Positions 10,569-53,145 are shown, counted from the first letter of the stretch. The stretch is 64,000 bases of DNA from a virus (IMGVR_UViG_3300018063_000004:369-64368), one strand, 5' to 3'. The notes: generated from the sequence alone by a model not told the origin. Made by a program: numbers and translations.

Positions 10569-10805
10569 ATGGCCGTGACGATCCAGAATGGCAACGATCA
10601 GGCGACGTTCGATAACAGCCGATGGACCTCGGCCGATCCCCGGCTCGAGGCGTTCCTGAACAGCATCATTCCGATCGATCGGATCTCGCCCTCGGTCGGC
10701 CGGCCTGATGTGTTTGTCGCCAGGGACGCGATCGCGCGTCTCGGCGATGGCGCAAAGATCGTCACGGTCAGCACAGAGACACTCCCTCCGGACGCCATAC
10801 CCTAA
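10569..10805 (+). CDS. Small convergent protein, candidate immunity partner of the MuF peptidase
   Basis: 78 aa globular-looking ORF filling the gap; stop overlaps MuF stop; TATCCT -10-like box upstream. Confidence 0.6.
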   Translation: MAVTIQNGNDQATFDNSRWTSADPRLEAFLNSIIPIDRISPSVGRPDVFVARDAIARLGDGAKIVTVSTETLPPDAIP

Positions 10806-12757
10806 CGGAACTTCCCGCGCAGTAGCTCGAAGATGAAATCGAAATACTCCGGATCCGCTTTGGCGAGCGCCGCCGGATCCGCAAAGAAATATTCGATGCC
10901 CATCGAGACGATCTCCGTAGCCTGCAGACCGTAGTCCTTGCCCATATAGGGATCGAGGAACTTATCCTTCCGCGCGCGCTCGTGCGGTTCATAGCCGTAG
11001 CCTGGCTTGAGCGTCGACAACGGCGTGAGCGCCTCGCCCTTCGTGCGCGCCTCGAGGAACCGGAACGCCGCGGCCTTCACGTCCGGCGCGTTGAACTCGA
11101 GGATATGCCCGATCTCATGCGCGATCGTTCTGGCGGTTTCGTTCATGTTCAGATTGATCGAATTGTTTTGCTGCCTCGCGAATGCCCTCGAGACGAACGT
11201 GCCGGACCCATCCCGCGCGCGATCGACGACGATTGAGCTGATCGTGCCGTGGCCAACGAGCTTTCCGACTTCCTCAAGCGTTTGACGGATCCGCTTTGTG
11301 ACTTCAGCGCCGTTAATTGGCCGGAACCGGATCGTTCGTTTATTGAATGCCTGATCAGTGCCAAACTCGGCGCCGGGCGCGATGTGAAATTCGATCGTCC
11401 GCCGGTCTGTAACCGGAACGGCCAGGCGCCGACGAAGCGCCCTGGTTTCTGCGTCAAGGTTCGCCTTGAGCTGTCGCTGGAGCCGGTTCATTTCTCCGAG
11501 GAATCGATCCACGTCCTCAGCCGCGGCGATATAGCGTGGATCGGCACGAATCACTTCATCGGCGAGCTTCTCGAGGCGCGTGTTGGCCGCCAGCCATTCG
11601 TGTTGCGCGCGTAGATGACTGTCCGCCAGGTTGCGGCGTTGCTGATCAAACCGATCGGCGACCTTCGTGAGCGAGTGACGCACGTCGGCCGCTGACCGCG
11701 GCGGCCGCGGTGGCCGCGGCGCCGGCCTCGGCACGACGGGCGGTTCCCCCACCACAGCGGGCGACGGTTCTGGGGTGACACGGCTCCTCGAGGTCGAGAA
11801 CGCCCGGAGTTCGTCCAGGTTGAAATCGACGAAGGCTCCACAGCGGCACATAATTGTTGCCCCCGCGGCCAGCCGGCCCGCCGGCGTCGCGTCTGGATCT
11901 ATTGGAAAACGCAAGAGCGCCACACCGAGCAGCTTCGGCGGTTTGCCTGGCGCTTCGCTGTGAACATTGATCCGGAACCGATCACGCACCGGGATCCCGT
12001 GCCCGCGCGCGTAGGTCTGCGCGGCCTCCAGATGCCCCTGACGCACCCGCGCATCTCGAGCGGAACGCCAGCCCTTGCGGAGAAAGGGGAACTGATTCGC
12101 CAGGCCGAGCAAGCGATCGAAGGTGGATTCGTTCAGCACGCGACCAAGTTCCGTTCGCACCATTCGCTCGGCCTTGAATTCGGCCGCATCGAAGCCCGCG
12201 TCCCCGATGTTCGCGGCGAGCTTCCGGAGTTCATCGAAACTGGCCTCGCCAGCGATCGCCGCACGCCGCACGCCCTGGACGAGCTGATTCCGGAACCGTT
12301 GCATGGGTTCGGAGAGCAGATCGGCCGTCAAGTCAAACGCGCGTGTGGCCAGCGCGCGATCGAGCTGCGGCGCCCGGCTGAGTGCCACGCGCGCTGCCCG
12401 AAGCGGTTCATCCGCGCTCGAAGCTCCGAGGTCCTGTGCCTGGCCGAAGGCAGCCTTGGTGCCCGCGAGGAGATCGGCTTGCGCTTCGGCAATCAAGCGA
12501 TCGATATCAAGGATCAGACTCGAGGCCGTGAAGCGTCGGAACTGGGAGGCCCCGGCGGAGGCGAGCACGCCCTGCAGCTCGCGCTTGAGTTGCTGAAGGC
12601 GAGCCAGTAGTCGCTGGACGACGTCGCGCTCGAGCCCGAGCGCGGACCGTTGGACCTCACGTCCAGCCGAGGCGCCGGCTGCCGCCCGCCTGGCCGGCGA
12701 GTTCGGATCAGAGGCCTCATAGGCCGGCGCGAGCGCCAGGTTGCCCCGTGTCAACAT
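10802..12757 (-). CDS. MuF/gpF minor head protein with C-terminal zincin metallopeptidase
   Basis: AERMVRTE, KGWRSARDARVR..H, IMCRC; Pro-rich linker; AHEIGH and ATEIVSMG. Confidence 0.85.
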   Translation of the reverse strand: MLTRGNLALAPAYEASDPNSPARRAAAGASAGREVQRSALGLERDVVQRLLARLQQLKRELQGVLASAGASQFRRFTASSLILDIDRLIAEAQADLLAGTKAAFGQAQDLGASSADEPLRAARVALSRAPQLDRALATRAFDLTADLLSEPMQRFRNQLVQGVRRAAIAGEASFDELRKLAANIGDAGFDAAEFKAERMVRTELGRVLNESTFDRLLGLANQFPFLRKGWRSARDARVRQGHLEAAQTYARGHGIPVRDRFRINVHSEAPGKPPKLLGVALLRFPIDPDATPAGRLAAGATIMCRCGAFVDFNLDELRAFSTSRSRVTPEPSPAVVGEPPVVPRPAPRPPRPPRSAADVRHSLTKVADRFDQQRRNLADSHLRAQHEWLAANTRLEKLADEVIRADPRYIAAAEDVDRFLGEMNRLQRQLKANLDAETRALRRRLAVPVTDRRTIEFHIAPGAEFGTDQAFNKRTIRFRPINGAEVTKRIRQTLEEVGKLVGHGTISSIVVDRARDGSGTFVSRAFARQQNNSINLNMNETARTIAHEIGHILEFNAPDVKAAAFRFLEARTKGEALTPLSTLKPGYGYEPHERARKDKFLDPYMGKDYGLQATEIVSMGIEYFFADPAALAKADPEYFDFIFELLRGKFR

Positions 12758-39915: not shown

Positions 39916-40236
39916 TCACGTGGGCTTCGTCCAGGTAGCTGCCGGCGTGCTTGATAAGGAGGCGAGATTCAATTTACGCTCCCCGTCCTGAGCGCCTGGC
40001 GCCTGCGGGACGTGTCTCTTCGCCAGCTCGAGGGCCCGATCGAGATCGTCCTGGTGGAACCGAAGCTGCCGCCCGCCGCGGAGGCGGTAGGGAATGATCC
40101 CCATCCGGGGATAGGCGAGGTAGAACGCGTGGAGTGTGCCGTTCCCGGACTCGAACCGGAGGTAGGCCGCGGCTTCCTCTGCCGTGAACCACGGCGATTG
40201 GATGGCCTTGCCGCTGACGGTGGCGACGGCCCTCAC
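39916..40236 (-). CDS. Excisionase-like HTH
   Basis: WFTAEEAAAYLR..LRF..DDLD. Confidence 0.75.
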   Translation of the reverse strand: MRAVATVSGKAIQSPWFTAEEAAAYLRFESGNGTLHAFYLAYPRMGIIPYRLRGGRQLRFHQDDLDRALELAKRHVPQAPGAQDGERKLNLASLSSTPAATWTKPT

Positions 40237-40529
40237 CGTGCGGCCCCCGATGATCGCGACGTTGTCTTGGGTTCTTGATCGCGGACTGTTCGCGCGCGGC
40301 CCTGCGGCAATCGGCTAGCCTCACGCTGATGGGCGAGAAAGCGACGGATGCGATGCAGGCCAATTTCGTGGTGGAAGTTCTTGTTTCGGATGGCGGTGTG
40401 AAGCGTCCGCATCGGGACCGGAAAGCCGGCGGCCGCCATCTCAGCCGCCAATCGTCGGAACGTCAGGCCGCGATCGAGCCGATACGTTGCGAGTTCCTGC
40501 AGCTCGGGGAGTGGAAGTTCTGGCAACAT
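40233..40529 (-). CDS. Cro-like HTH regulator
   Basis: YRLDRGLTFRRLAAEM; divergent from repressor. Confidence 0.7.
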   Translation of the reverse strand: MLPELPLPELQELATYRLDRGLTFRRLAAEMAAAGFPVPMRTLHTAIRNKNFHHEIGLHRIRRFLAHQREASRLPQGRARTVRDQEPKTTSRSSGAAR

Positions 40530-40556
40530 TGAGAAACCACCTGTTCAGCAAGTGAT

Positions 40557-40602
40557 TAGCCTTGCCGCACGGATAGTGCCATGGCATCGGCCAGCACGTC
40601 AA
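40557..40602 (-). promoter_or_regulatory. Lytic promoter with operator
   Basis: TTGACG-N18-CACTAT (TG extension) directly followed by operator CCTTG-CCG-CACGG (40560-40572 on +). Confidence 0.6.
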
Positions 40603-40727
40603 GCGCCCCCTACACTAGCGGCACAGACACGCGTGGCATTACAAGATGGCGGCCCGGGTGTGGAGCCGCCGCCGGCCTGATTGTGGGAACACCTGAGCGG
40701 AAGGAAGACGCTCAGCCGGGACACGCG

Positions 40728-41117
40728 ATGAACCGAACCACACACACGGAACTGATCCAGCTCCTCAAGGCGGAGATCGACAAGCGCGGCAGCGCGCGCG
40801 CCCTGGCCAAACTGATCGGCCTGACCGAAGGCCGACTCGGGCGCGCGCTGCGCGGCGAATTTTCCTTGAGCGTGGAGAAATGTCTGCGGGTCTCGAAGAT
40901 CGCGGGGGAGCCGCCCTCGCGCGTGCTCCGGGCGGCCGGCAAGGGCGGGATTGCCGACCTGATCGAGGACCTCTATGCCGTCGGCGACGATCTGATCAGC
41001 CCGTCGGAGCGCGATCTGCTCGCGCGGTTCCGCGTGCTCGGCCCGAAGGCGCAGCGCACGTTGCGTGATCTCCTTGACGAACTGCCGGACACCGGCTCAC
41101 GTCAGAAGCGCGCGTAA
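40728..41117 (+). CDS. CI-like repressor (HTH plus short helical C-terminal domain, no S24 peptidase)
   Basis: SARALAKLIGLTEGRLGRALRG; C-terminal ERDLLARFRVLGPKAQRTLRDLLDEL. Confidence 0.8.
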   Translation: MNRTTHTELIQLLKAEIDKRGSARALAKLIGLTEGRLGRALRGEFSLSVEKCLRVSKIAGEPPSRVLRAAGKGGIADLIEDLYAVGDDLISPSERDLLARFRVLGPKAQRTLRDLLDELPDTGSRQKRA

Positions 41118-41375
41118 CACGATGACGATCGATGAGGCGAGTTGCGAGATGAGGGAGCGCACGATCCGCTTCACGCGGGGAGAGAGTCGCGCGAAGTCTC
41201 GAAGGGTGTCTCGATCCTCGCGCGTGGCGACGCCAGTATTCTGGCTCGATTTGAACGGCACGATCGTCAGAGGCGCGCGGCGTCGCTGAGAGCGATCGGG
41301 TTCGACGTTCACGGGCGCGGCAATAAGGCCCATAGACAGATTCTCGGCGCCGGGGGCTCGCATATGTATACTCAA
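41097..41375 (-). CDS. Small protein resembling repressor C-terminal domain
   Basis: DRDTLRDFARLSPRVKRIVRSLISQL; upstream TTGAAA-N18-TATACA; start uncertain (perhaps 41333). Confidence 0.55.
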   Translation of the reverse strand: MSIHMRAPGAENLSMGLIAAPVNVEPDRSQRRRAPLTIVPFKSSQNTGVATREDRDTLRDFARLSPRVKRIVRSLISQLASSIVIVLRALLT

Positions 41376-41465
41376 GACAAGCCCGGCTTTTCAACCCACG
41401 GTTCTGTAATCCGATTGTCGATCTTCGTGAACCACGTTCACACTCGTGTAAGATTCTCTCTGGCA

Positions 41466-41500
41466 GCGCGCGGAGGACCCGCGCCCGTATGGGCGTTTTT
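41466..41500 (+). promoter_or_regulatory. Attenuator-like copy at the integrase start
   Basis: GCGCGG-AGGAC-CCGCGC hairpin overlapping GCGCCC-GTAT-GGGCGT-TTTT. Confidence 0.6.
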
Positions 41501-42592
41501 ACTCGCCACGATTCGCCGTTCTACTGGATCTGGCTCGAGCGGCCTGGCCGCAAGGGCAAATCCGAAAGCACGAAAGTGCCGATCGGCGCGCCCACGCCAG
41601 GCCAGCGTCGCGATCAGCGGTTCCTCGCCGCGCAAATCTATCGCGCGCGCATGACGGACCTCGCGCGGCAACGCCATCGGATCCAGGCCGGCGAGCGCGT
41701 GACGATCGGCTTTACCGCCTACGCCGAGTGGTATCAGGCACACTTTACGGTCCACAAGCGCACGGCCGCGCGCGAACGGTCCGCGATCAAGAACCTCATC
41801 GCGCACTTTAAGCCCTACGATCTCGACGAGATCGATAAGGGGACCGTCATCGAATGGCGCACCTTCCGGAAGCGCCACGTCAAGGCCTCGACGGTCAACC
41901 GTGAGCTGGACGTGCTGAAGCACATGCTCAAGGAGGCCGTCCCGACCTATCTCGACCACTCGCCGATCGCCGGCCTCAATCGACTACGCTCCGCGAAGGC
42001 CGCGATCCGCATTTTCACGACCGAGGAGGAAGTGCGATTTTTCGCCGCGACGAAGGACCTCGAGGAAGCGGCGATCATGTTGATTGCGCGGGACACGCTC
42101 ATGCGGTTGTCAGACGTGAAGAGTCTGCAATGGGCGAACTGCCGCGGCGACTACATCATGGTCATCGATCCAAAAATCGAGGCCTATACCGCGCCGGTCT
42201 CGCCACGGCTGCGCGAAGTCCTCGAGGCGCTCCCGCGGCGCGGCCGGTTCCTCTTCCCGAGCCGGCAGTCCGGCCCCGGCTCGCTGTCGGCGAACACCGT
42301 CCATCGGTTGTTTGTGGAGATTTGTCAGCGGGCAGAGATCCCGCAAGGACGGAAACGCAATGGCGTGACGTTTCATTCGCTCCGCCACACGGGGACGACG
42401 CGCGCGCTCGAGCGCGCGGTGCCCGTCCGCGGCGTGCAAGCGGCCGGCGGCTGGCAGAGCATCAAACAGCTCGAGCGATACGGTCACGTGACTGATGAGA
42501 ACGTGCGCCTGTTTCGTGAGCGCATCGGCCAGGGCGACGATCTGACGCAGATTCTGCGCGATCGGATTGACGGCAAGACCTCGATTCACTGA
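41489..42592 (+). CDS. int: Tyrosine integrase
   Basis: STVNREL, TLMRLSD (R), PK, HSLRH, GW, ERY catalytic set. Confidence 0.95.
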   Translation: MGVFTRHDSPFYWIWLERPGRKGKSESTKVPIGAPTPGQRRDQRFLAAQIYRARMTDLARQRHRIQAGERVTIGFTAYAEWYQAHFTVHKRTAARERSAIKNLIAHFKPYDLDEIDKGTVIEWRTFRKRHVKASTVNRELDVLKHMLKEAVPTYLDHSPIAGLNRLRSAKAAIRIFTTEEEVRFFAATKDLEEAAIMLIARDTLMRLSDVKSLQWANCRGDYIMVIDPKIEAYTAPVSPRLREVLEALPRRGRFLFPSRQSGPGSLSANTVHRLFVEICQRAEIPQGRKRNGVTFHSLRHTGTTRALERAVPVRGVQAAGGWQSIKQLERYGHVTDENVRLFRERIGQGDDLTQILRDRIDGKTSIH

Positions 42593-42969: not shown

Positions 42970-43272
42970 TCAGACGTGCCCGTGCGAGGGCAGCACCCGG
43001 ACCAATTGCGGGCGCTCACCTTCTGCACGCGGAGCGGGCACGACAATCAACTGATACCGCTGCGGGCTCGGACCTCGATAGCGCAACGCACGAGCGCCAG
43101 CGGTGTTGATTGGGACGGGCTGGCGGCCGCTCGCGATCGTCGTCTCCGCCATCGCGATCAGCGCCTCGCTCGCGCGATCGAAAATCGGTCCCTGGGTCAC
43201 GTCGGGCTGGCCCGTCAGCGCCAAGTAGTCGCGGACGGCACGCACCGAGATATACCAGGGACCGCGCATCAT
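42970..43272 (-). CDS. Hypothetical protein (possibly RNase/toxin-like fold)
   Basis: WYISVRAVRDY..LRYRG..YQLIV..QLVRV. Confidence 0.45.
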   Translation of the reverse strand: MMRGPWYISVRAVRDYLALTGQPDVTQGPIFDRASEALIAMAETTIASGRQPVPINTAGARALRYRGPSPQRYQLIVVPAPRAEGERPQLVRVLPSHGHV

Positions 43273-43423
43273 GATAGGCTCGTCCTTGCTCCGCGCGCCA
43301 TTTCCGAGGCGTGATCGGGCCGCGCGCCTCGGCCCCATTAAAGCGCTGTGTTTGCCCGTTTCAAGCTTTCTCGTCGCACGTGATTTCCGGGGCACCGATC
43401 GTCAGGTGCCCCGGCCCTATTCC

Positions 43424-44462
43424 TCACACCCAATATTCCCCGCACGTCGGACACTGCACGTCGCGCTGAGGGTCGTCTGTCTGCCAGCGGTGCCCATTGT
43501 CGCACTCGCATATCTCTAGGAGCTGGGCTGGCGTCTCGCTTCGCTTCGGCGCAGACCGCACGAGCAGGACACGGTCGGCGTGCCGCCGCATGTAGGTGAC
43601 GGTCGAGTCCCCGATGTCGGCCGGCACGAAGGTCAGCTCCGCGTGCTGCATCGGGTGCATCGAGCCCGGCTCATCGTAGCGGACATACCCATCCCTCAGC
43701 CTGCCTCGCGCGTCGACGCTGATACACACGAGGCCGTGGCAGTGATCGACCCACGCCTGAGCGGCATCAGGGAGGATTCTTGTCTCGGTGGCATGTATGT
43801 AAGGATTTGCGAGGTCGAGACCATCATGAGCCAGCGCCTCCAGGATGCGCCACATATCGGTCGTCTCAATCCGGGAGCGCCGTCCTACGATGCGACGCAC
43901 GGTGTCGAGTGTGCTTGTCCGATTTCTCATTTGATCCTCCTGTCGGCTGGCGGGCCGACTCAATAACCCATCTCCGCTTCCCCGCGCTCGTCACGGTAGC
44001 ACGGACAGCGGATAGTCGGCGCCCTCATCGATCCCAATCACCTTCCGGTGCTCCGTTCAGCGCGTCGTAGCGGCGTGCCCATCGCTCGCGTGCTTGCTGC
44101 CCGCGCCGGCTCTCTGTCCATTCCACCGCTGGCCGGCATTCCTGCGGCCCGAGGTCAAGTGCTAGTTCGCCCCTGAGTGGCCGCCCGGCCGCGTGTGCAG
44201 CTTGGCGCGCCTTTCGCCGTTCGCCCTTCGTCATCATCATCACTTAGCTCCTCGAGAGCGCCCATGCGGTCATGTTGATTTCGATCGCGAAGTCACAGGA
44301 CGAACAGAGTGCCGCCGGCGCCCGTCTCGAGTGCCGCGGTAGTTCGGCGCCGATCACGTGAGAGCTAGAGCCGGCAGCGTAGGTCTCGGACACTTTGCAG
44401 CGCGTGACGACCTCGAGCCGGCCTCCACACTTCGGACACGGGAACGGCGCCGCCGTCGTCAC
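43424..44462 (-). other. Early hypothetical genes (43424-43930, 44025-44243, 44244-44462)
   Basis: RBSs; Zn-ribbon CxxC motifs. Confidence 0.55.
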
Positions 44463-44779
44463 TTGGCCTCCGCCGATCGCTCGAATGCGAGATACGCCTC
44501 GAGGATCAGATCGCGGATCCGTTCTTGCGCCGCGACGTCCACGATCGGGCGGAGGAGCGCGAATGATCGCCGCTCGCCATTGACCGAATACTGGCGCGCT
44601 GGAAAGGTGACGTTGCGACTGCTGCCGCGGCGCTCCCAAACGGCGAAGCCGATCAGCTTGAGGCCGGCAAGGGCGGAGCGCGCGATGTCGAGTGAGTCCT
44701 CTTCGAAGTGCAGCTCCACATCGGCGAGTTTGCCGGGCGGATTGCCGCGATCGTTCGGCGTGATCTTGATGGTCATCAT
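44459..44779 (-). CDS. SpoVG-like nucleic-acid-binding protein
   Basis: KLADVELHF..GLKLIGFAVWERR..NVTFPARQY..IRDLILEAY; GGAGG RBS. Confidence 0.7.
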   Translation of the reverse strand: MMTIKITPNDRGNPPGKLADVELHFEEDSLDIARSALAGLKLIGFAVWERRGSSRNVTFPARQYSVNGERRSFALLRPIVDVAAQERIRDLILEAYLAFERSAEAK

Positions 44780-44805
44780 GCTGTCCTCCTTTTTTCTGAT
44801 CTGGT

Positions 44806-45057
44806 TCACTGGCCGGCGCCTTTTACCTGGATGCCGCGGTCTTGGCCGTTGACGACGAGGCGGTAAGAGGTTCCGTCAACGTAGGGCATAAGCGCGCGCC
44901 AGAGCGCGGACTTCTGCGGTCCGCAGACGTTTGATCCGAAGCCGCCGCCTTGCGGGTTCGTCACGAACCAATACCAAGTCGCGCGCTCCTTTCGTAGACT
45001 CACAACCGGCACACCCGCGTCATTCGCGATCCGTTCTGTTTCTCTTGATGTCATCAT
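44806..45057 (-). CDS. Hypothetical early protein
   Basis: Begins at the duplicated promoter block. Confidence 0.55.
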   Translation of the reverse strand: MMTSRETERIANDAGVPVVSLRKERATWYWFVTNPQGGGFGSNVCGPQKSALWRALMPYVDGTSYRLVVNGQDRGIQVKGAGQ

Positions 45058-45188
45058 GCCTAACCTTGCTGCAAGGCACAGTCCAGGCCTGCCGAACGCC
45101 GATTGCGGCCGAAATAGAGGCCATTCGCAAGGCAATCGCCTACTTGGCGTGTGCAGAAATCGGTCGAGGAATCACGAACTCGGCATCG
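45050..45188. repeat. About 140-bp duplicated promoter/operator block, copy 1
   Basis: Aligns with 47798-47936; contains CCTTG-CTG-CAAGG (45064-45076) and GGCGTGTGCAGAAATCGGTCG. Confidence 0.85.
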
Positions 45189-45193
45189 CGGAT

Positions 45194-45760
45194 TTATTCG
45201 CCCGCCCGGTCCTTATCGCGCAGCCGGCGCTCCACATGTTCGGCCTGTCTGAGATCGCCGCCGGCAATCTGAAACCGGCAATGATCACAGAGCCCGTCGT
45301 CGCCCGTTGCCAGATTCGAGCAGGAATCCGAGGCGTTCCGACAGACGCGATGGCCACACGTCGGACAATTCATCGTGGGCGAACCATCCATAAACACGCG
45401 CCGCGAATCGAGGCAGTTCAAACAGTCGATGTGCAGCGTCGTCCGGATTGCATCCAGTGACAGGCGGAGCTGCTCGGGATCGAGCGTCCAGGGTGCGTCA
45501 CCAGGAAGATGCGCAAGGACATCGAACTTGAACGCCTGATAGACGGCCGCCGGCGGATCGAAGCCGAGGAAATCCGCCAGGAGCGAGCGCGCCAGGTCCG
45601 CGGGCCCACTCCCGCCGTAGCCCCAATTGAAACCCGTCGGGGAATGCCGCACGAGATGTTTCAACGGCCGCTCGACGCCGGCGATCGATGTCCGACAGAC
45701 AAGCGCCGTGCCATCTTGTGCCCGTTCGCCGCGGTAATGCTTCGCTGCATAGATTGTCAC
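45194..45760 (-). CDS. DUF6166-like protein with Cys-rich tail
   Basis: HSPTGFNWGYGGSGPADLARSLLAD. Confidence 0.7.
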   Translation of the reverse strand: MTIYAAKHYRGERAQDGTALVCRTSIAGVERPLKHLVRHSPTGFNWGYGGSGPADLARSLLADFLGFDPPAAVYQAFKFDVLAHLPGDAPWTLDPEQLRLSLDAIRTTLHIDCLNCLDSRRVFMDGSPTMNCPTCGHRVCRNASDSCSNLATGDDGLCDHCRFQIAGGDLRQAEHVERRLRDKDRAGE

Positions 45761-45852
45761 TGGTCCTCCTTCGCGCCTGGAGAGTGTCGGCCTCGCCGGC
45801 GCCGGTTCTTGCCGCGACGCGCGGCGCGCTGGTGGATCCGGAGCCCACACGA

Positions 45853-47775
45853 TCACAGTTCAAACGGGAGCGCGATCGACCGTTGCTTTGGTCGGCGCTT
45901 CCGCTCCTGCGTGTGCAGTTTCCGGTCGGTAATTTTGTGCGGGTCATCGTCCGGGAGCTGCTCGAACAGCTCGCGCGGCGCGTCGGCCGAGAGCCGTCCC
46001 TTGCCATGCAGGGCGCCGCCACAGCGACAACGGCAACGCGGATGCTCTGCGTTCTCGCAACGGCGCGCCTGTCCCTCAGTCAATCGTTTCATCGTGCTCT
46101 CTCAGCTCACGGCGGCGCTCAGCCTGTTCTTCGTCATCATCCGGAACAAGGTCGCGCGAGTCTTCGTAAGCGTTCGCGTGCTCGGTCTCGGCCCATCCGG
46201 TATGCGGATCGGCGTAAAAGCTGAGCGCCTTCCGGAGCCGAATCACGACCGCGCGGAGTTCCGCGATCGTCGTTGTGTCATTGGCTGACATTTGCAACCT
46301 TCTTTGGCGCCTCGAGTGTCGCGAATATTTCCTCCCACGTGTCGCCGTAAGCCTTCGGCCTGGAGATCCTCAAGCCGCCCATGGCATCGGTTGTCCCGAC
46401 TTCAAAGCGCCAATAGGCAACCCGGCCAGATTTGCGGAGATGCTCGCGCGCGTCGTGATTTGTTTTGTATTCCGCCTTGATCGCCTGATAGTCGGCGTCG
46501 GCTGCCAGGACAGTCTCGCGCCGCACTTTCATGCGCTCCTCGATGTCAACCTGTGCCGCTCGTAATTCCTTCCCTTTCGTGCTGGCGGCCTCTCGATCCT
46601 CCGGCCGACTAAGCCGCTCGCCGATGCGCCAGTAAACGTTCGGCCCGATGATCTTCCGAAGTTTCTTGATCGCTTGTTCGCGCGTCATGCCGAGGCCGCC
46701 TCCTCGATCGGCTCGAATGTCGTGCCGACGCTCGGCGCCTTTCCAGGCGGACAACTAAAGCCCATCTTGCCGTGCTCATGCTTCGGCCGCCGGCAATGCC
46801 GGCAGATAGCGTCGTCGGCCGCTTCGCTCGCCCGCTGGAATCTCGTGTTCATGCGCTCGCCCTCAGTTGCTCGACGTGATCGAGTTGCCGATTGAGAAGA
46901 ACCAGGCACTCTGCACAAATCCCGTGCGACAGGTGGCCATCGCGCGGGCCTTCCGTGATCACGACGGCCGTCACGTTCCGGAGTGTCGGACAATACGCGC
47001 ACACGGTCAGCATGACTCGCCCCTCGCGCGTGCCTGGCGCGCGGCCTCGGCCTCCAGGTCCGCTGCATTGATGACAAGCTGCGGCGCCGCGGTCCATTTC
47101 AGATTGCCAAAATACGGCCATTGTGAGCCGAACTGAAAACTCGCCATGAGTTCGCCGCGCGGCTCAAAGACACGGACCGTGCCGGACTCCACGCCGGCGT
47201 CACAGAGGTCCTGACACGCCAGCCAGATCGCACTGGTTAAACTCCGCGTCTGGACAATTTCCCCATCGCCAAACATCCGCCCATCAATCGTGCGCGCGAA
47301 ATAACCGGCGCCGTGTGTCGCGCCGCCATAAAGGCAAATATCCGCAACCGGCGCCCTCTGTGTTTTGGTCCTGGCCATCGCTGTGCTCCTGGTCTCGAGT
47401 TCCGTGTTACTTGGATGCTTCGGCGCGCAACCGATCCGCCAGGTCTCGCAGCAACGTGCGCGCGAAGGCCTCGGCGGCCGGTTTGCCGGTGAACATGCCG
47501 GCGACGTCGTCGCCCTTGAGTCCGCCGCGGAATTGCAGTTCGAGCCGTTGCGCGTTCGCCTCAAAATACAGATCCTCAAGCGTGGAATAAGGCGTCGGCT
47601 TCGTCACGATCCACAGCGACGAAATCCGGAGGCCTTCCGCGATCGCCTCGAGCACGGGATCGCTGCTCTCGGGAACCGTCACGCTCACCATGCGGCCGTG
47701 GCGATTCGCCACCTTGTAACGTCGCGCGTCGACCTTCGCTGCCTTGATCCCTTGGTCGCCTGGTGTCATGGCCAT
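45853..47775 (-). other. Chain of small early genes (45853-46092, 46076-46297, 46278-46688, 46685-46852, 46849-47013, 47007-47378, 47407-47775)
   Basis: Coupled ORFs with RBSs. Confidence 0.55.
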
Positions 47776-47797
47776 CGTCTCGCTGCCTTTCCTTTGC

Positions 47798-47936
47798 GTC
47801 ATCATGGTCTATCCTTGTCGCAAGGCACGATCCAGGCCGCCGAACGGCAAGTTCCTTCGGAATACAGGGTCATTCGCAGCCCAATCGCCTCTCGGCGTGT
47901 GCAGAAATCGGTCGTTCGATAACGGAGTCGGAATCG
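47798..47936. repeat. Duplicated promoter/operator block, copy 2
   Basis: Contains CCTTG-TCG-CAAGG (47813-47825). Confidence 0.85.
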
Positions 47937-48094
47937 GCTTCCCGGGGTGTCGTCGGTTGGAGCTGTTCGAGGATCTTGAGGACTACACGTTGCGCGCGCG
48001 GGTTCAGCACCCGGAACAGTTGCAGGATCAGCGCGGGATCGATCGAGCTTGGCGCCTGGCGTTCAACCGGCCAGGGCAGGACGCGGGCGGGCAT
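47870..48094 (-). CDS. Second repressor-C-terminal-domain mimic, candidate antirepressor
   Basis: AGGAGG 7 nt before ATG; LILQLFRVLNPRAQRVVLKILEQL versus CI DLLARFRVLGPKAQRTLRDLLDEL. Confidence 0.7.
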   Translation of the reverse strand: MPARVLPWPVERQAPSSIDPALILQLFRVLNPRAQRVVLKILEQLQPTTPREADSDSVIERPISAHAERRLGCE

Positions 48095-48342
48095 CTTGAG
48101 GCCTCCTGGCGCGCGGAAATCGCGCCAAAGGCCGGCGGGCCTGCGCTATAGTGCCGGCCAGGTCCGCCGGCAGGTAGCTGCTACCGGCTGGCTCAGGACC
48201 GTTCGGCGCGTCCCCGCGCGCCGGCGGTCCGACTTTCTGCCAGAGAGACCAATTGACTCTCTCGTTATCGCTCGGAAGTCAAGCCTAAACAGCACAGGCG
48301 GCATGACCGATAACCCCTTCGTCCCCGCGAAAGGAGGTTCTG

Positions 48343-48711
48343 ATGGTCAGCCGCGTCTCTCTCATCGTCGCGTGCTCGGTCTTGCTCGGCGCGTGTTTTC
48401 ATTCCTCGCCGACCTCGCCGTCCTCAGCAACGGCCAGCGTGGAATATCGGATTACCGGATCCGCCGTGTCACGTGTCTCGATCACGTATGAGAACGCGAC
48501 AGGCGGCACGTCGCAGATTTCGAGCGCAGCCCTGCCCTGGTCCTTTTCCCGATCAGCGAAAACGGGTGATTTTCTCTATGTGTCGGGTCAAATCGCTGAG
48601 GGGACTGGGACGATGACGGTGTCGGTTTACGTAAATGGATCGGTGTTCAAGACCTCGACCAGCTCGGGGTTTGCCGCAATTGCCACGGCCTCTGGATCGT
48701 GCTGCTCCTAA
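48343..48711 (+). CDS. Lipoprotein with MmpS-like Ig fold (moron; possible superinfection exclusion)
   Basis: AAGGAGG RBS; lipobox LGAC; VEYRITG..ITY..LPWS..V.VNG. Confidence 0.75.
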   Translation: MVSRVSLIVACSVLLGACFHSSPTSPSSATASVEYRITGSAVSRVSITYENATGGTSQISSAALPWSFSRSAKTGDFLYVSGQIAEGTGTMTVSVYVNGSVFKTSTSSGFAAIATASGSCCS

Positions 48712-49071
48712 CCGACGCCACAGGCGGACCGGCGCCACAATAACGGCGCCCGCTCGCACGTGTTGACGCCTTGGGTCGATCGCTGACGTGGGTGAAGGAT
48801 GGGACACGTCCGCCAGCCGCGCGCGTTCCTGGAGCCGCTGAGCGGTCCGGCTGCACAAACGGCACAACTTCCCATTCGCCGCACAGTCCCCGCCGGCACA
48901 TCTCGAGCTGAAAATCGAGCGACGCGATCAGCTTCTCGAGCCTCGCCAGACGCGCGCGCAGCTCGGCAATGCAATCGTGCGGCCCCTGGACCTCGAGGCC
49001 GCACGCCTCGCATGTCATCGCCACGGCTACGGCGTTCGCACGATTCGGAGCACGGCCGGGATCACGAAATG

Positions 49072-49419
49072 CTAGGGCGGTGTCACGGTCACGTTGCGTC
49101 GGAGACCGGTGGACCCGACGCAACTATCCTCGTCGAGGGCGGACACGACCAGGTTGTGTGTGCCCGCCACACGGGGGAAGTAGCGGATGCCCGCGATGAC
49201 GGCGTCTTCGTCGTGCGTTTCAATGGTCCAGCCGGCTCGACCATCGCCGATCAAATCTGCGGTGACGCTCTGAATCCGTGTCCCCGTCGGGGATGTCACC
49301 TGGAACACGACACGCCCTGATTGTCCCATCAGGACCGTGGGCGTGTAGCTTTCGACGGTGATTACCGGACCCGCGTGTTCACAGGGACAGGCGGCGGCGT
49401 CAGGGCACGATCGAAAGGG
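49072..49419 (-). CDS. Ig-like domain probably appended by -1 frameshift to the upstream secreted protein
   Basis: C CCT TTC heptamer at 49413-49419; -1 frame open to 49072. Confidence 0.6.
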   Translation of the reverse strand, partial: PFRSCPDAAACPCEHAGPVITVESYTPTVLMGQSGRVVFQVTSPTGTRIQSVTADLIGDGRAGWTIETHDEDAVIAGIRYFPRVAGTHNLVVSALDEDSCVGSTGLRRNVTVTPP

Positions 49420-52617: not shown

Positions 52618-53145
52618 TTACGGCACTTCGAGCAGCGAAAAAGTTAATGCCCGATTTTCTAAGCCTTCCTCAAATTTCTTGTCGACGCTCCCGCCTGGAT
52701 TGGTGCTCATGTCGATCATTTGAAGACGCGCGCCGATCAGCGCCTGGTTGACAAGCCACTGGTCCGCGTTCGTGAGCGCCGCGATGGTCGGCGCGTCCAT
52801 CTTACTCGAGCGCGCCACGCGGAGCACGCGCTGCAGCCAGCGGATCGCGAGGCCTTCACCGGAGTTGTAAGCCATATCGATCGCCTGCAATCGCAGCGGC
52901 TCGAACGTGATTCGATCAAGGCCGGCCCGGTTGGCGAGCTGGCTGAGCTTCCACCGAACGATCGGCCGAGCTGTGTCGACAGCGAGTGCCTTGAGTTCGG
53001 CGAGGGTCGCAGGCCGCCCGAGATATTCCGAGAGCGTCGGCAAGATGATTCCTCCAGCTCCGGTGGGTTGGTCGATTTCCGGCGGTTCTGCGTAGCGATC
53101 CCCTTCCTTCCGGAACACGTCATCGATCACTTGCTCGATCGTCAC
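52618..53145 (-). CDS. Endolysin, GH108-like
   Basis: EG..Y..P..D..T..GI; DMAYNSG..AIRWLQRVL; KF..G..NR. Confidence 0.8.
   Translation of the reverse strand: MTIEQVIDDVFRKEGDRYAEPPEIDQPTGAGGIILPTLSEYLGRPATLAELKALAVDTARPIVRWKLSQLANRAGLDRITFEPLRLQAIDMAYNSGEGLAIRWLQRVLRVARSSKMDAPTIAALTNADQWLVNQALIGARLQMIDMSTNPGGSVDKKFEEGLENRALTFSLLEVP

Follow-up and report, generated by a model that had tools for sequence, protein, structure and literature searches.

The window analyzed here is a 64,000-nucleotide stretch of viral DNA (IMGVR_UViG_3300018063_000004:369-64368), comprising bases 369 to 64368 of a 64,368-bp IMG/VR virus record that has direct terminal repeats and is rated 100% complete; the guanine-plus-cytosine (GC) content of the window is 62.7%. 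Two of its genes form the main subject, namely, an orphan open reading frame (ORF) of 74 amino acids (aa), ORF74, and the gene for a CI-like repressor (CI). Structure models suggest that the only folded part of ORF74 reproduces, as a stand-alone unit, the two-helix C-terminal module (the tail) of this phage's own XRE-type CI. The features on which the comparison rests are as follows.

47870-48094, minus strand: ORF74, 74 aa, ATG start, an orphan taken from the ORF list
48102-48107, minus strand: AGGAGG Shine-Dalgarno sequence, with a spacer of 7 nt to the ORF74 ATG at 48094-48092
47960-48037, minus strand: ORF74 residues 20 to 45, a predicted helix-turn-helix hairpin matching the CI tail (AlphaFold2 [AF2]; BLASTP block 23 to 52)
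40728-41117, plus strand: CI-like XRE repressor, 129 aa, with weak HTH_3/BetR and phrog_638 matches
41001-41081, plus strand: CI residues 92 to 118, the C-terminal two-helix hairpin, or tail (AF2)

From its sequence, ORF74 is a real-looking small gene. A preliminary description of this DNA had reported the ORF and a perfect AGGAGG ribosome-binding site (RBS) and had omitted the strand; both are present, the ORF on the minus strand and the RBS reading from 48107 to 48102. AGGAGG occurs at 39 sites on the two strands and yields 18 site/start pairings in which an ORF of 50 aa or more begins at a start codon 4 to 10 nt downstream; several of the sites coincide with called gene starts, including those of a lipoprotein gene, a 545-aa gene, and an exonuclease gene. 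ORF74 is the first gene of a tightly packed, co-directional block in which the next start lies 64 nt on, and its GC content by codon position is.72/.48/.71. In a codon model that gave positive margins for 130 of 130 true-frame 75-codon windows, the hairpin-coding segment alone had a minimum margin of +0.089, and the conserved cro-like gene of this phage scored only +0.031. The RBS and ATG, the position in the block, the codon margin of the hairpin, and the protein-level match described below all argue for a gene.

ORF74 found only itself in a word-indexed homology search. An exhaustive phmmer search of 1.84 billion representative proteins returned ORF74 and two other proteins, of 797 and 2110 aa, which were rejected as tandem-repeat artifacts. 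No family in Pfam or PHROG matched ORF74, and no helix-turn-helix (HTH) family among them, as the preliminary description had held; no PDB sequence matched at an E value of ≤10. The best feature score among its Protein Atlas matches was 0.84, under that resource's bar of 0.9; DUF2281 and two HTH_3 clusters, the latter matched in their non-HTH part, are among its structural rows, which are likewise below the bar (TM score, 0.38 to 0.49). The single-sequence AF2 model was poor overall (predicted local distance difference test [pLDDT] score, 65.5), with helices only at residues 20 to 28 and 32 to 45 (block pLDDT, 81 to 85) and the remainder unfolded.

CI is divergent from the 98-aa cro-like gene and lies upstream of a tyrosine integrase gene (int). 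Its HTH matches in Pfam and PHROGs are sub-threshold only (HTH_3 E value of 0.0062, 17 bits against a cut-off of 23), and the profile of its family matched XRE/HigA chains in the PDB (best E value, 5.2e-5). The AF2 model built from a 17-row alignment (pLDDT, 87) has six helices up to residue 83, a low-confidence linker at residues 84 to 91, and then the hairpin helices at 92 to 102 and 106 to 118. Compared with XRE domains, the N-terminal domain (NTD) of the model (residues 1 to 77) gave a best Z score of 8.4 (root mean square deviation, 2.6; 70 residues aligned), with Z scores of 6.7 for SinR (1b0n_A) and 6.6 for 9iaq_A. Foldseek and VIA alignments obtained with the CI model covered essentially this domain only and barely extended into the tail. 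By both profile and fold, CI has the HTH_3-type five-helix DNA-binding domain of XRE or Cro/CI HTH repressors, and its layout (XRE HTH domain, linker, two helices) is of the SinR/AimC type. By analogy with those proteins, the tail is a putative oligomerization domain. CI has seven close homologs, and eight viral loci bear CI; the tail is kept in the seven and is variable in distant homologs. No CI relatives were found in genome contigs, and metagenomes supplied a single 1027-bp contig.

The claim that CI has no RecA-cleavable S24 domain stands: Peptidase_S24 (PF00717) has no match anywhere in the 64,368-bp record, and CI ends in its two-helix tail. The ANT domain (PF03374) had 0 matches in the record at an E value of ≤0.1, and the sole Peptidase_M78 signal was sub-threshold (12.1 bits against a cut-off of 22; E value, 0.0065) in a 676-aa open frame. 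This last match sits in a 651-aa protein at 10802-12757 on the minus strand and is probably noise.

BLASTP aligned ORF74 residues 23 to 52 with CI residues 97 to 126 without gaps (13/30 identical, 20/30 positive; pairwise E value, 1e-6), and both peptides quoted in the preliminary description are present in the translations of the two genes. When ORF74 residue 23 is aligned with CI residue 97, the predicted hairpins coincide (20 to 28 and 32 to 45 in ORF74; 92 to 102 and 106 to 118 in CI). The string FRVL occurs four times in the six reading frames, and CI and ORF74 account for two of these. A six-frame search of the phage's own genome placed the match at an E value of 7.4e-4. In reciprocal phmmer searches, ORF74 and CI were each other's only non-family match among 3505 six-frame ORFs (E value, 0.008 to 0.009), and the E value was 0.014 to 0.016 among 6118. 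The Smith-Waterman score of ORF74 against the CI tail was 66, compared with 54 and 51 for the next best of the 1195 window ORFs and with a maximum of 49 when the CI tail was run against 4203 ORFs of five other phage genomes (GC content, 66 to 68%). Only 1 of 20,000 shuffled sequences attained a score of 66, a test that overstates significance because shuffling destroys helical periodicity. Across the CI family, the ORF74 score is highest with its own CI and falls to 53, 49, 46, and 42 with other members. A tail-only profile of 16 other CI tails, with the phage's own CI left out, retrieved ORF74 at an E value of 0.0091 of 6118, with noise from 0.29. Identities between the two coding segments at codon positions 1, 2, and 3 number 17, 21, and 7 of 30, and the same codon is used at 4 of the 13 identical residues; the match is therefore one at the protein level and not a DNA repeat or a recent duplication. 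We consider the relationship between ORF74 and the CI tail to be probably real. Of the proposal that ORF74 mimics the repressor tail, the sequence resemblance and the predicted hairpins in register stand; its significance is moderate, and the profile tests are mixed, as discussed below.

A second stand-alone tail-like ORF, overlooked in the preliminary description, lies next to CI.

41097-41375, minus strand: ORF92, 92 aa from a TTG start or 88 aa from the ATG at 41363

ORF92 runs toward CI and covers the final 21 nt of that gene in antisense. Its residues 54 to 79 align with CI residues 94 to 119 (10/26 identical; pairwise E value, 3e-4), and it is 9/22 identical to ORF74 residues 24 to 45 (E value, 0.001). 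Identities between ORF92 and CI at codon positions 1, 2, and 3 (13, 15, and 7 of 26) again favor the first two positions. The tail-only profile search found ORF92 at an E value of 0.0075 of 6118, its minimum margin in the codon model is +0.094, and the source's gene caller reports it as an 88-aa protein. Neither of its two possible starts has a Shine-Dalgarno sequence upstream, and ORF92 has no homolog and no Pfam family. Against the window's CI, it scores 51 (ORF74, 66), with phmmer E values of 0.5 to 0.8 of 6118. By analogy of gene layout with the aimX/aimC pair considered below, ORF92 appears to be at least as good an antirepressor candidate as ORF74. At 41427-41441, between the starts of ORF92 and int, two 6-bp arms around a 3-bp spacer form a perfect palindrome of 15 bp; the window has no other perfect copy of this palindrome, which is a candidate operator.

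Tail-only ORFs also occur in a related phage. In the tail-only profile search, 11 CI homologs were followed by L017 10257-10598 (E value, 0.0036), ORF92, ORF74, and L017 11483-11749 (E value, 0.017). Locus L017 belongs to record G002, which is also the record of L006 and is one of five related complete or near-complete phages (G001 to G005). The G002 immunity region (L017 8986-12702) has a divergent cro-like gene, and everything else in it is co-directional with int, forming a minus-strand array of CI paralog 1, tail-only ORF b (66 aa), CI paralog 2, a zinc-finger gene, tail-only ORF a (86 aa), and the integrase gene. The zinc-finger protein is a stand-alone protein of the ClpX type (PF06689; E value, 1.2e-12). 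The screen for stand-alone tail-like ORFs covered ten records (the window; all of G001 to G005; parts of L003, L004, and L007; and just 1 kb of L012), and 2 of the 10 had them. Two candidates from G003 were rejected: L019 7421-8203 (profile iteration 2; E value, 0.0089) breaks up into two weak fragments that lie within a longer ORF, and a look-alike of the G003 phage's own CI tail is an overlapping-frame, Gly-rich artifact. What is new here, judging from the sequences, is the occurrence of several apparent stand-alone tail modules around CI genes in a little-sampled phage group.

The surroundings of CI and ORF74 include the following features.

40233-40529, minus strand: cro-like gene, 98 aa, divergent from CI, at the head of the recognizable early operon
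41489-42592, plus strand: tyrosine integrase (PF00589, E value of 1.1e-17; phrog_1, E value of 4.5e-44)
42970-47805, minus strand: block of 14 small ORFs downstream of ORF74, running toward int, with several overlapping stop and start codons
48095-48342, no strand: divergent intergenic region of 248 bp between ORF74 (minus) and a lipoprotein gene (plus), the presumed ORF74 promoter region, with GC-rich palindromes
48100-48133, minus strand: leader stem-loop with the Shine-Dalgarno sequence in its 3' arm (minimum free energy, -23.9 kcal/mol)
48343-48711, plus strand: lipoprotein-like moron (PF05423 Mycobact_memb, 28.4 bits against a cut-off of 21, E value of 1.7e-6), divergent from ORF74

Family matches trace the early operon from 40529 downward on the minus strand through the cro-like gene, HTH_17, RecT, exonuclease, SbcC-like, and replication initiator genes, and the cro-like homolog adjoins the CI homolog in 6 of 8 viral loci. 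ORF74 had been described as the head of the early region, which is not supported: the recognizable early operon starts beside CI at 40529, and ORF74, 6.75 kb from CI on the far side of int, heads a separate block that follows lysis and tail genes (endolysin, 52618-53145). In the small-ORF block, DUF6166 (45194-45856; E value, 1.7e-21) is the only family recognized, with one weak zinc-ribbon match besides, and several members carry CxxC pairs. No member is related to anything in the eight CI-bearing viral loci, and the 132-aa neighbor has no close relative among viral contigs. A 16-nt direct repeat (75% identical; 40528-40543 and 40680-40695) flanks the gap between CI and the cro-like gene; by shuffling, this repeat does not exceed chance, and there is no third copy.

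The leader of ORF74 is structured. Four GC-rich stem-loops occupy 48095-48300 (minus strand), with the Shine-Dalgarno sequence in the last. That stem-loop (48100-48133) is not unusual for its composition (z score of only -1.43; 16 of 200 shuffled sequences fold equally well); for the whole 221-nt leader, the z score is -3.04, and 1 of 200 shuffled sequences equals it. A structured leader with the Shine-Dalgarno sequence in a stem hints at separate control of ORF74. A scan for sigma-70 promoters and terminators found nothing inside 48095-48342, the inverted repeat GAGAG...CTCTC at 48243-48263 has a single copy and does not exceed chance expectation, and Rfam gave nothing in the ORF74 region except one sub-threshold match at 48868-48932. 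The lipoprotein gene has its AGGAGG 5 nt ahead of the ATG; a LexA-box match on this RBS was dismissed as spurious. Very few plus-strand genes were mapped, and from int to the tail genes this gene is the sole example; at its 3' end, it overlaps an ORF of the minus strand (48647-49123).

Nearly all genes of the phage lie on the minus strand, and the record has no tRNA genes. One 600-aa phage protein has a 33.5% identical match in a Microcystis phage, the only named-phage relative looked for. Sequencing runs containing the phage DNA are limited to two freshwater-sediment metagenomes, one of them probably the source, and no RNA runs are listed among them. The second run contains an identical 268-nt contig covering 47780-48047 and therefore offers no ORF74 variants for a selection test. 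Within the small-ORF block, diverged short contigs of both metagenomes stack up at 44505-44775, to a summed depth of 59 compared with 8.4 for the phage contig. The gene concerned, a 106-aa ORF at 44459-44779 on the minus strand, has no Pfam or PHROG match, and the segment thus appears to be widespread in the community.

Several known systems resemble the arrangement considered here. The SinR/SlrR/SinI/SlrA network of Bacillus subtilis comprises several proteins that share one hairpin, and sinI and sinR are adjacent genes. As described in passages of a preprint (bioRxiv 10.1101/2025.11.23.689978), SinR is an XRE HTH repressor with a C-terminal helical oligomerization region, SinI is a small helical protein that shares that region only, and the heteromer of the two blocks SinR tetramerization. 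The SinR NTD (1b0n_A) is among those matching the CI model, and ORF74 is SinI-like in sequence terms, being small and helical, sharing the C-terminal helices of a repressor, and having no HTH. SinI/SinR differs in being a bacterial chromosomal biofilm switch and not a phage switch, and ORF74 is distant from its presumed target. Pfam SinI (PF08671) has no match at an E value of ≤10 anywhere in the 64,368-bp record, and ORF74 and CI residues 84 to 129 match 0 Pfam families at that threshold. ORF74 may work like SinI or AimX without kinship to either.

AimX and AimC, which belong to extended arbitrium modules, provide the closest parallel in gene layout for ORF92. [quoted passage not shown] The ORF92/CI layout is that of aimX/aimC, and PDB entry 9iaq_A is the second of the NTD matches given above. 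Genes of the AimX type lie downstream of aimR-aimP, converge on the repressor gene, and often overlap it; ORF74, in contrast, is neither near CI nor convergent with it. The two AimC helices are separated by a beta-hairpin that is not predicted in CI; the hosts are Bacillus in that system, whereas the present phage, with a GC content of 63%, comes from a freshwater-sediment metagenome. The evidence here is similarity, whereas similarity between AimX and the AimC CTD is not mentioned in the passages of the preprint drawn on. General family scans found no aimR or aimP beside ORF74 or ORF92, no search aimed at the aimR family having been made.

Small orphan antirepressors of about 30 to 80 aa are documented in passages of two sources (bioRxiv 10.1101/2025.11.23.689978; PMC10432266). 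Parts of the second describe modules of a transcription factor and a small ORF (TF-smORF) in linear plasmid-like Vibrio and Aeromonas phages, in which the smORFs are antirepressors that have neither homologs nor predictable domains and are strictly specific for the cognate cI, which they inactivate without proteolysis (PMC10432266). ORF74 is likewise a small orphan without a homolog. In those modules, the smORF is divergent from the transcription factor gene and the target repressors are autoproteolytic, whereas ORF74 is divergent from a lipoprotein-like gene (Mycobact_memb) and CI has no S24 domain; the passages of PMC10432266 drawn on do not mention repressor mimicry. Antirepressors (P22 Ant/ANT-KilAC, 186 Tum, and Gifsy) and ImmA/ImmR-type proteolysis are routes that inactivate repressors without S24, in line with a general statement in the same source (PMC10432266). 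The phage differs from these classical cases in that the record has no PF03374 match and only the sub-threshold Peptidase_M78 signal, and ORF74 belongs to no family.

Because CI has the SinR/AimC-type layout and the record has no S24, no ANT, and no above-threshold M78 domain, a SinI-like antirepressor is a reasonable proposal, a part of the earlier interpretation that survives the loss of the supposed early-region position. The reading that we favor, tentatively and by analogy, is that ORF74 could be a SinI/AimX-like antirepressor that pairs with the CI tail and drives induction. CI would dimerize or form higher oligomers through its C-terminal hairpin, and the look-alike hairpin of ORF74 would stand in for a second CI tail. 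A CI:ORF74 heteromer of this kind, with a single DNA-binding domain, would fail to hold the operators, and the cro-like early operon would be derepressed without proteolysis. We infer all of these elements, namely, oligomerization by the tail, binding by ORF74, the sign of the effect, and the timing of ORF74. Prediction of the complex between CI (alignment A3) and ORF74 gave ipSAE values of 0.13 and 0.14, with the mark at 0.32 and no control pairs, and weighs neither way.

Several results count against ORF74 as the trigger of induction. The significance of its match to the CI tail appears modest and depends on the method. A full-length family profile without the phage's own CI gave ORF74 an E value of 0.16 of 1195, and a profile of the tails of the seven close homologs, again without that CI, gave 0.67 of 6118; hhalign of ORF74 against a CI-family alignment (A3) that included it returned a probability of 9% and an E value of 0.0037. 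An Arg that is invariant in the eight closest CI tails (R113 of alignment A2) is Leu in ORF74. For none of the 6 CI tails in G001 to G005 did the rest of its own genome yield a look-alike scoring above the null. For ORF74 as a whole, the codon model is ambiguous, slightly favoring the antisense frame (minimum margin, -0.043), and ORF74 is an orphan. Comparison of 40500-40760 with 48080-48360 uncovered no notable common 14-mer (at ≤3 mismatches) and no common repeat that could serve as a shared operator, and six types of LexA-box consensus gave no genuine match upstream of ORF74. The tail-only ORFs of G002 score highest with tails from the CI clade of the window (P0004, 59; P0003, 53) and reach only 36 with their own CI1, and their place in one strand array with CI and int suggests co-expression with the repressor, which does not suit an induction trigger. 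In addition, with its aimX-like position by CI, ORF92 may be the actual antirepressor. We hold the claim that ORF74 drives induction only tentatively because ORF92 better fits the aimX layout and the G002 array suggests co-expression.

These results bear on four other explanations. The resemblance may be due to chance or to convergence of two amphipathic helix-Pro-helix hairpins, ORF74 being an unrelated small accessory protein encoded in a block of such genes. E values no better than roughly 1e-3 to 1e-2 at genome scale, the lack of significance in two of the three profile variants, a shuffle test that errs toward significance, an Atlas score under the bar, the absence of homologs, and a neighborhood in which all 14 ORFs are uncharacterized are compatible with this explanation. 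It nevertheless seems unlikely to us: with the CI tail as query, ORF74 is the top non-self match in 1195 own ORFs and 4203 foreign ones, 17 raw score units above the foreign maximum, and the polar identities (R, P, A, Q, and R) match as well as the hydrophobic face does. Moreover, the four non-CI ORFs at the top of the tail-only search form a group at E values of 0.004 to 0.017, clear of the noise, and three of the four lie within 1.5 kb of a CI gene, unlike noise. That ORF74 is non-functional, being either the decayed relic of a partial duplication of the 3' end of CI or a chance ORF in a long regulatory gap, we regard as highly improbable. Its orphan status and the ambiguous codon signal over its whole length would suit such an origin, and tail-only ORF b of G002, lying between CI paralogs, could be a truncated CI copy. 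ORF74, however, has a consensus RBS with a spacer of ideal length, a kind of site that frequently coincides with a gene start in this phage; the codon model gives a positive margin for the segment encoding the hairpin; none of the frames upstream of ORF74 retains any vestige of the CI HTH region; and the codon-position pattern excludes a recent DNA duplication, while a neutral relic so old would have lost its open frame.

The other two explanations accept ORF74 as a member of the tail family. ORF92 could be the antirepressor of this phage and ORF74 an additional, diverged copy whose role is minor or of another kind. The 21-nt antisense overlap of ORF92 with CI compares with 30 bp for aimX/aimC in the passages describing that pair (bioRxiv 10.1101/2025.11.23.689978), ORF92 keeps the CI-family Arg that ORF74 lacks, it surpasses ORF74 in all three profiles, and both its codon margin and the source's gene caller favor it. 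We consider this explanation quite improbable, given that ORF92 has no Shine-Dalgarno sequence at either start and no homologs and that it scores below ORF74 against their common CI, with phmmer E values of 0.5 to 0.8. Alternatively, ORF74 may be a true CI-tail module and a node in a hairpin network that modulates or buffers CI oligomerization or acts as a partner of ORF92, without being the induction trigger. Three hairpin-bearing ORFs in one phage (CI, ORF74, and ORF92) are consistent with this role, as is G002, whose two CI paralogs and two tail-only ORFs form one array with int that resembles a lysogeny-side operon and whose tail-only ORFs prefer foreign CI tails. ORF74, however, lies outside the CI/int array, heads a separate block with a leader of its own, and is closest to its own CI, and pairwise similarity scores among the stand-alone ORFs (31 to 44) are inside the null range (maximum, 49). 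A buffering role of this kind is rather doubtful in our view.

It is also conceivable, though we think it improbable, that the lysis-lysogeny switch as a whole is built from interchangeable two-helix tail modules, one fused in CI and others free (ORF92 and ORF74), with competition among hairpins setting repressor activity and with G002 as a second instance. The switch would then be a phage counterpart of the four-protein SinR/SlrR/SinI/SlrA network, the ORF74 leader would sequester the Shine-Dalgarno sequence, and the tail-only modules with their best matches among foreign CI tails might extend their action to other phages, affecting the immunity of competitors.

To our knowledge, the temperate phages recovered from metagenomes mostly carry short XRE repressors that lack an S24 domain, and the route by which they are induced is mostly unexplained. 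Because inactivation of a repressor by a small partner of its C-terminal helices is an established mechanism (SinI/SinR and, in phages, AimX/AimC), the SinI/AimX-like antirepressor proposed here would be a sequence-detectable variant, perhaps part of a multi-member network, and not a new principle. If the proposal is true, antirepressor candidates would be findable from sequence by searching each phage with the tail of its own repressor, and small orphan genes could be judged by a rule that is both simple and testable.

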